From a virus, in the IMG/VR virus record IMGVR_UViG_3300007712_000002, positions 28,504 through 92,503 of that record: a DNA stretch of 64,000 nt; one strand, written 5' to 3'. A program made the translations under genes and the position numbers. The first letter of the stretch is position 1. Every line of letters starts with the position of its first letter. The notes beneath the pieces were generated by a model. That model was not told the origin of the DNA. It searched no databases and was given only the letters and a program-made list of their open reading frames with translations. Shown here in pieces: positions 57,404 to 57,629 of this stretch.

Positions 57404-57463
57404 TGAAAGCTTTGCTGATTTGGCGGATCGATATTACAACACTTAACTTAAAAGGAGACAGTT

Positions 57464-57493
57464 ATGAAACGCAAGGTGAACAAAAAGCCGTAA
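57464..57493 (+). CDS. Lys-rich 9-aa candidate leader peptide MKRKVNKKP
   Basis: AAAGGAG RBS; codons AAA, AAG, AAA, AAG; directly upstream of three tRNA-Lys genes. Confidence 0.65.
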   Translation: MKRKVNKKP

Positions 57494-57551
57494 CTGTCCT
57501 GGAAGCCCGCAACGGTCCAGGACGGAGTGACAGACGATGTTGCACTATCTT

Positions 57552-57629
57552 GGACCGGTAGCTGAGTTGGTTTTAGCGGGAGGCTCTTACCCTCCGTCAA
57601 CGTGGGTTCGAATCCCACCCGGTTCTCCA
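57552..57629 (+). tRNA. tRNA-Lys(CTT)
   Basis: Loop CTCTTAC; CCA end. Confidence 0.9.

Follow-up and report, generated by a model that had tools for sequence, protein, structure and literature searches.

A conserved phage leader with a lysine-rich mini-ORF and mutually exclusive helices may control maturation of the adjoining tRNA-Lys

Results

The leader lies between an orphan gene and three tRNA-Lys genes

We analysed 64 kb of phage DNA, hereafter the window, which forms the 3' part of a 92.5-kb IMG/VR record. The record represents a giant soil phage and is estimated to be 25% complete. Several soil metagenome runs carry copies identical to the window. Among the short contigs of four such runs no natural variants and no RNA evidence were found; all were identical to it. 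From approximately 48.9 kb onwards, about 35 tRNA genes, with small ORFs between them, form an array on the + strand. The leader described here is located between an orphan ORF and three genes for tRNA-Lys, which we call K1, K2 and K3. The positions of all main features are listed in Table 1.

The three tRNA-Lys genes share one common acceptor strand at their 5' start. K2 was detected by neither ARAGORN nor Rfam. Briefly, tRNAs of this type carry a GUGG loop on a 6-bp hairpin at the place of the D arm. The K2 type is kept in three phages, with five doubly compensated pairs.

Other parts of the window also hold unusual tRNA-related features. A tRNA-Cys-like gene (48885-48963, anticodon GCA, CCA encoded) lies just 5' of the annotated tRNA-Cys at 48970. 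ARAGORN also reports two overlapping tmRNA-like genes (40909-41566), before and across the start of a PurF-like ORF, which may be false positives. A parallel 'Cys leader' at 48684 was considered and rejected. The ORF at this place (48684-48818) is a 44-aa, Cys-rich, metallothionein-like gene with its own terminator-like hairpin.

Table 1. Features of the leader region and of related loci. Identities are between the window and contig L084; helices are given as 5' arm/3' arm.
Feature	Position	Strand	Description	Identity
Orphan ORF	56621-57403		260 aa	
tRNA-Pro genes				69-70%
45 nt 5' of ATG				54%
Shine-Dalgarno AAGGAG	57452-57457	+	Read directly; 6-nt spacer to ATG	
Mini-ORF MKRKVNKKP + TAA	57464-57493	+	ATG at 57464, TAA at 57491-57493; 9 codons; Lys at codons 2, 4, 7 and 8	67%; 6-nt in-frame indel
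Helix X	57457-57466/57489-57498	+	10 bp, 1 G-U; -10.4 kcal/mol	
Hairpin H1	57494-57503/57516-57525	+	10 bp, 1 G-U; begins at the base after the stop codon	
Alternative hairpin (alt)	57513-57557	+	57513-57522/57548-57557, 10 bp, 1 G-U; inner helices 57524-57525/57545-57546 and 57527-57532/57538-57543	
Conserved structured block	57491-57551	+	Stop codon to tRNA; 53/61 positions identical	87%
K1, tRNA-Lys(CUU)	57552-57629	+	ARAGORN; Rfam tRNA, 54 bits; CCA encoded; 5' strand is the alt 3' arm	83%
K2, tRNA-Lys(UUU)	57649-57731	+	6-bp hairpin replaces the normal D arm	85%
K3, tRNA-Lys(CUU)	57857-57931	+	Identical 5' acceptor strand; without a leader of its own	
Other spacers				47-48%, random level
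K2-type tRNA-Lys(UUU)	L084:1541-1624	-		
K2-type tRNA-Lys(UUU)	L055:132-214	-		
Intact basic-protein gene	L031:3449-3589	-		
Intact basic-protein gene	L030:1913-2056	-		
Intact basic-protein gene	L036			
Intact basic-protein gene	L037:376-519	+		
Intact basic-protein gene	L087:1501-1629		In a Chloroflexota MAG	

A lysine-rich mini-ORF is followed by a chain of exclusive helices

The leader contains a nine-codon mini-ORF. Its Shine-Dalgarno sequence ranks with the strongest of the window, judged against 40 gene starts. Four of the eight codons after Met specify Lys, with AAA and AAG used twice each, and they are interspersed rather than tandem. A previous reading of the letters, hereafter the sequence-only reading, had drawn attention to a strong ribosome-binding site and to a peptide in which each Lys codon occurs twice; we located both exactly as described. 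The combination is unusual. Both strands of the window hold 806 ATG mini-ORFs of 3-15 codons. A strong Shine-Dalgarno sequence precedes three of these, and three have at least four Lys codons. Only the leader mini-ORF has both (1/806).

The TAA of the mini-ORF touches hairpin H1. The 3' arm of H1 can instead form pairs with the tRNA-Lys 5' end. H1 has a predicted energy of -17.9 to -19 kcal/mol (z = -3.6 against shuffles). The 3' arm of the alternative hairpin, which we call alt, comprises leader bases -4 to -1 and bases 1-6 of the tRNA-Lys(CUU) K1. It includes the RNase P site. The sequence-only reading had proposed both pairings. Both are present and the second is longer than was claimed. 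It belongs to the minimum-free-energy fold of positions 57440-57632, as part of an extended 18-bp hairpin (57513-57557; -23.4 kcal/mol). The remark that no U-tract follows also holds. There is none after either H1 or alt, and scans found no terminator, and no + strand promoter, nearby.

A further helix, X, was overlooked in the sequence-only reading. X surrounds the mini-ORF and joins the AUG to the region of the UAA, so that the AUG is predicted to be hidden. Helices X, H1 and alt are each 10 bp long and uninterrupted. Each overlaps, and excludes, the next, and the acceptor stem of the tRNA ends the chain. With the strands numbered in order as segments, the pairings are 1:2, 2:3, 3:4 and 4:5.

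We compared the predicted energies of the competing states. In the window, the fold with X and alt has an energy of -64.6 kcal/mol, against -58.9 kcal/mol for the fold with H1 and the tRNA cloverleaf. With positions 57455-57505 blocked, the values are -48.2 kcal/mol for alt and -39.9 kcal/mol for the cloverleaf; alt is favoured by 8 kcal/mol. The two states of L084, a homologue described below, differ similarly (-60.7 versus -56.8 kcal/mol). By these predictions, the two states would be close enough in energy to permit switching, in the window and in L084 alike.

The chain of helices is rare against chance

We counted all stems of at least 10 uninterrupted bp, with at most one G-U pair and a loop of 3-30 nucleotides. 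The 64-kb window has 23. The three at 57457-57557 form its sole overlapping chain. We then generated 300 dinucleotide shuffles of the entire window sequence, which had 8.3 such stems on average. Any overlapping pair occurred in 3/300 shuffles and a chain of three in none (0/300).

The leader was also compared with those of other tRNAs. Its duplex with tRNA positions -4 to +7 has a predicted energy of -18.3 kcal/mol, the strongest for the 34 tRNAs of the window (p ≤ 0.003 against shuffled leaders). When folded in silico with 100-nt leaders, 12 of 33 window tRNAs lose the acceptor stem. Such a prediction is therefore non-specific and was given no weight. A general excess of anti-acceptor strands before tRNA-Lys genes was considered and rejected; in the fetched loci, these occur before 2 of 52 tRNA-Lys genes and 10 of 412 other tRNA genes. 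Among the same 52 tRNA-Lys genes, no other has a strong upstream anti-acceptor together with a Shine-Dalgarno-led Lys mini-ORF.

The stop-to-tRNA block is conserved above the tRNAs

A pattern joining the first 12 bases of the mini-ORF to the first bases of the tRNA identified L084, a diverged 2.2-kb metagenome contig. Here, the leader is on the minus strand (L084:1616-1720) before a tRNA-Lys gene. This is the sole true homologue found. The order of genes is tRNA-Pro(CGG), tRNA-Pro(UGG), leader, K2-type tRNA-Lys(UUU), spacer and K1-like tRNA-Lys(CUU). In the window, tRNA-Pro(UGG) is separated from the leader by the 260-aa ORF, and the leader from K2 by K1. The L084 leader is thus fused, at the equivalent junction, to a different tRNA-Lys with an identical 5' strand. 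Since the junction lies within the common 5' strand, the leader travels with the first tRNA-Lys, whichever its type.

Identity between the two loci is uneven (Table 1). The block from the stop codon to the tRNA outscores every tRNA compared. Bases in this block serve two alternative helices, so constraint of such a degree would be expected. The L084 mini-ORF has seven codons and encodes MKRKHKR before its TAA, with Lys at three of the six positions after Met. L084 thus keeps the ATG, the first four codons (MKRK), the richness in Lys and a TAA abutting H1. It also keeps AAGGA, with a 7-nt spacer. The changes in codons 3 and 4 are both synonymous.

The search for conservation in relatives, which the sequence-only reading had advised, thus yielded one diverged homologue with H1 and alt kept. 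All ten pairs of H1 are retained in L084, with one G-C changed to G-U. For alt, 97% of cells are paired over the two sequences; the L084 pairing is 9+4+5 bp, the G-U at -2 has become G-C and the internal mismatch has moved by one position. The register of helix X is lost. Only 5/10 pairs persist and the L084 Shine-Dalgarno sequence instead pairs with the same downstream strand. Between the two sequences (n = 2) the leader helices have no doubly compensated changes. With two sequences and no covariation, the case for the structure is therefore one of rarity and conservation.

Further searches delimited the distribution of the leader. No third copy was detected with nhmmer, using a two-sequence profile, in all 745 kb of fetched loci, and exact-pattern scans for the leader had no match. 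G006, the nearest relative found with a near-complete genome (93% complete), has K2 and K3 tRNAs and is without the leader. Searches of GenBank phages with blastn matched the tRNAs and nothing else. No relatives of the PurF-like gene or of the flanking ORFs (260, 159 and 406 aa) were found in viral or metagenome contigs, and the only match to the 260-aa protein in the protein database was an identical twin. Relatives of the helicase, at 17 loci, mark the same phage group; the five of their records that were searched were without tRNAs.

A model in which ribosome position selects the fold

The sequence elements, the alternative helices with their predicted energies, the rarity of the arrangement and its conservation in one relative are the observations from which a model can be built. 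We tentatively propose a leader that works like the trp attenuator but has folding and 5' maturation of tRNA-Lys, rather than termination, as its output. We give this mechanism a little less than an even chance of being right. We are much more confident that the element is a functional, conserved leader.

In the model, segment 1 would be the end of the Shine-Dalgarno sequence, the spacer and the AUG. Segment 2 would be the stop-codon region and the 5' arm of H1, and segment 3 the H1 3' arm, which is the anti-acceptor strand. The last four leader bases and tRNA bases 1-6 would make up segment 4, and the 3' acceptor strand of the tRNA segment 5. The candidate pairings exclude each other in turn: 1:2 (X), 2:3 (H1), 3:4 (alt) and 4:5 (acceptor stem). 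In the absence of a ribosome, X and alt would form, the AUG would be hidden and the tRNA 5' end clamped. Helix X supplies this state, in which no translation means a clamped tRNA, and so gives the full 1:2/2:3/3:4/4:5 topology. A ribosome at the stop codon would cover segment 2; alt would then form and the tRNA would again be clamped. Conversely, a ribosome held early, on the Lys codons, would occupy segment 1 and leave segment 2 free. H1 would then form and release segment 4, the cloverleaf would fold and RNase P could cut.

The spacing of the leader fits this scheme. In toeprinting, a ribosome covers approximately 12-13 nt 3' of the first base in its A site. Hence, with the UAA (57491) in the A site, coverage would extend to about 57503, which is exactly the whole H1 5' arm. 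With Lys codon 2, 4 or 7 in the A site, the arm stays free.

The sequence-only reading had put forward the core of this switch. A terminating ribosome was to melt the hairpin, so that the freed strand misfolds the precursor, and a Lys-starved ribosome was to leave the tRNA free to fold. The architecture it relied on is non-random and is conserved in L084 above the tRNAs, and the geometry agrees. We infer the remainder: that the mini-ORF is translated, that ribosome position chooses the fold and that the alt fold resists RNase P. More tRNA-Lys would then be made when decoding of Lys is slow. Two features count against the model. The mini-ORF has interspersed Lys codons, and a ribosome could stall just as well at its codons for Arg, Asn, Val or Pro. 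Furthermore, RNase P cleavage is irreversible, so any transient cloverleaf would leak.

An extension of the model, which we regard as unlikely, concerns depletion of tRNAs. Scarcity of usable tRNA-Lys, for example after its cleavage by a PrrC-type anticodon nuclease of the host, would stall ribosomes in the leader and unlock maturation of phage tRNA-Lys on demand. The leader would hence be a sentinel. One possible role of phage tRNAs is to substitute for those that host nucleases cut, an example being PrrC, which targets tRNA-Lys (PMC10264068).

Alternative explanations

The leader could instead be a structured processing or stability element that senses no lysine. In that case, the mini-ORF would serve for general loading of ribosomes, or be incidental. 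Such an element could determine when, or in which order, RNase P cleaves, could give RNase III or RNase E a point of entry, or could shield the upstream mRNA at its 3' end after removal of the tRNA. We consider this explanation possible but doubtful. Conservation is distributed as it would predict, with the hairpin block most conserved (87%) and the ORF less so (67%, with an indel), and the mini-ORF has no run of Lys codons. The alt duplex is also long (about 18 bp) and near-continuous, and H1 is the 3'-proximal stem in the fold of the upstream fragment that cleavage at 57551/57552 would leave. However, a stabiliser needs one hairpin, not three exclusive ones tied to the Shine-Dalgarno sequence, the AUG and the tRNA 5' strand. 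Retention in L084 of the Shine-Dalgarno sequence, ATG, frame, first four codons and stop position, with synonymous changes alone in codons 3-4, also speaks against this explanation.

Alternatively, the mini-ORF could be what is left, at the 5' end, of a decayed gene from a family of small basic proteins, which has members of about 47 aa with the same first four residues. Its richness in Lys would be inherited and have no regulatory meaning. We judge this to be quite improbable as a full account. The family in question has at least 180-217 members. Its intact genes in five loci (L031, L030, L036, L037 and L087) share the first 12 bases of the window ORF and run into tRNA-Lys, and 17-codon versions (L044/L049 and L043) match the first 24 bases of the window ORF at 17 positions. 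The L043 version has ATA where ATG is expected. The window TAA sits at a near-invariant Lys of the family, after a near-invariant Pro. Since the start of the ORF resembles the family start, ancestry could account for part of the Lys richness. Against this, matches of the family profile to the window frames are confined to the first 4-5 residues and have negative bit scores. The family core, with its RNPFV and GAHGKT motifs, had no match by hmmsearch in three frames of 57380-57620, and the record of the phage itself has no family copy at the place of the leader. Decay would also leave unexplained both the 87% conservation of the downstream block and the chain of helices. Shared ancestry of the mini-ORF with the family is possible, and such ancestry can coexist with present regulatory use.

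A third explanation is that the block after the TAA is translated in the frame of the mini-ORF, by read-through, by re-initiation or from a GTG start at 57527, so that the block would be conserved for its protein sequence. We think this very unlikely. It would account for the position of substitutions between 57494 and 57551, five of seven of which are at third positions, four being synonymous (binomial p = 0.045), and for the alignment of GTG 57527 with an ATG in L084. However, those same substitutions also keep pairs or fall in loops. TAA is the commonest true stop codon of the phage, and no tRNA that reads UAA was found with ARAGORN. The C-terminus in L084 is altered by a 1-nt deletion 5' of the tRNA, and 0 of 5.8 billion predicted proteins share words with the read-through frame. 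General recoding of TAA was rejected, as this codon ends 20 of 40 ORFs. We also considered -1 frameshifting. Sites of the dnaX type combine a slippery heptamer (AAA-AAG) with a 3' stem-loop about 6 nt away and a conserved -1 frame (PMC5009743). In the window, H1 follows C-AAA-AAG after 6 nt. Frameshifting was rejected because, in L084, the slippery run is absent and a stop closes the -1 frame.

Finally, coincidence of an ORF and complementarities in an A-rich spacer is scarcely credible: single 10-bp complements to tRNA 5' ends exist elsewhere (for example, at the tRNA-Val at 56353) and in silico misfolding is common, but a chance origin is nearly refuted by the shuffle test, by the uniqueness in the window of the Shine-Dalgarno-led Lys mini-ORF and by the conservation of the unit in L084 while its flanking spacers are random.

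Discussion

Relation to known regulatory leaders

Leader-peptide attenuators control amino-acid operons and include trpL, hisL, pheL and thrL. Like these, the phage leader has a short, Shine-Dalgarno-led ORF rich in the codon linked to its product, and a stop codon that adjoins segment 2. Also shared are overlapping helices 1:2, 2:3 and 3:4 from which, we propose, the position of a ribosome would choose. In the phage, helix 3:4 has no U-tract and is no terminator; it instead holds the RNase P site and the 5' strand of the acceptor stem. The regulated product would be a tRNA, not biosynthetic enzymes. Furthermore, the phage Lys codons are interspersed, and segment 1 is the AUG rather than the regulatory codons. 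Since its 3:4 helix is not an intrinsic terminator, the leader would work in the manner of an attenuator yet stands outside the family of leader-peptide transcription attenuators.

T-box elements couple the status of a tRNA to an RNA switch, and the phage leader resembles them in this respect. When clamped, it is predicted to pair UGGA (57500-57503) with the 3' UCCA of the tRNA. Unlike a T-box, the element is only about 100 nt long and has no Stem I or specifier loop, and it is proposed to act in cis via a translated ORF. An Rfam scan of 56500-58700 at E ≤ 1 found no T-box; its only matches were tRNAs.

In M. tuberculosis, small Cys-rich ORFs are reportedly able to sense cleavage of tRNA-Cys by VapC4, as is said to have been described by Barth and colleagues in 2021. 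The idea is common to both: when a tRNA is lost, this would be reported by a small ORF in which the cognate codon is enriched. The bacterial system differs in that it regulates mRNAs; a tRNA gene is not its output.

Translational attenuation offers another parallel. In the leaders of ermC and cat, a ribosome paused in the leader ORF remodels a downstream hairpin and transcription is unaffected, as would be the case here; the ermB type is a further example (PMC8274638). In ermC and cat, however, the pause is caused by a drug and frees the ribosome-binding site of a resistance gene. In the phage, the 5' strand of a tRNA would be freed. A full-text literature search found no published account in which a leader peptide controls the maturation of a tRNA.

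Phage tRNA genes are usually viewed as constitutive passengers of long arrays. If the proposed mechanism is right, ribosome-mediated attenuation would gain a new output, RNA maturation instead of termination, and the phage would have feedback control over its own supply of tRNA. This bears on why phages carry tRNAs, either for codon supply or to replace those destroyed by host nucleases. Should lysine not be the signal, a leader that is better conserved than its tRNAs would still be a new functional RNA element.

Other small genes and hairpins beside tRNAs

The family of basic proteins described above is itself unannotated. Its members are very basic, about 47 aa long and number about 200 cluster representatives. 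In phage arrays, the gene is directly 5' of tRNA-Lys(UUU) and its stop codon is inside the tRNA, at approximately positions 8-13. Cleavage by RNase P would hence leave an mRNA without a stop codon. We considered an ArfA-like rescue factor and rejected this; there was no Pfam, NCBIfam or PHROG match, and a profile search of the PDB gave spurious matches only. Stand-alone homologues occur in MAGs of Rhodocyclales, Zoogloea and Gallionella and in a Spectribacter isolate.

Hairpins and complements also occur beside other phage tRNAs. The 5' end of the window tRNA-Val(UAC) has a G-U-rich 10-bp complement (56275-56286/56349-56359), within the preceding 84-aa ORF (p = 0.003 against shuffles). In Streptomyces phage Genie2 (L022, 1473-1493), a short perfect hairpin, a palindrome of the CCWGG type, lies 4 nt 5' of tRNA-Lys(CUU). 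Its sequence recalls H1, although the resemblance may be coincidence. Lastly, the end of several ORFs of the window array falls within the tRNA that follows, or on its first base (53990/54023, 55428/55442, 56353/56355 and 60959). Processing of these tRNAs would therefore strip the stop codons from the ORFs.
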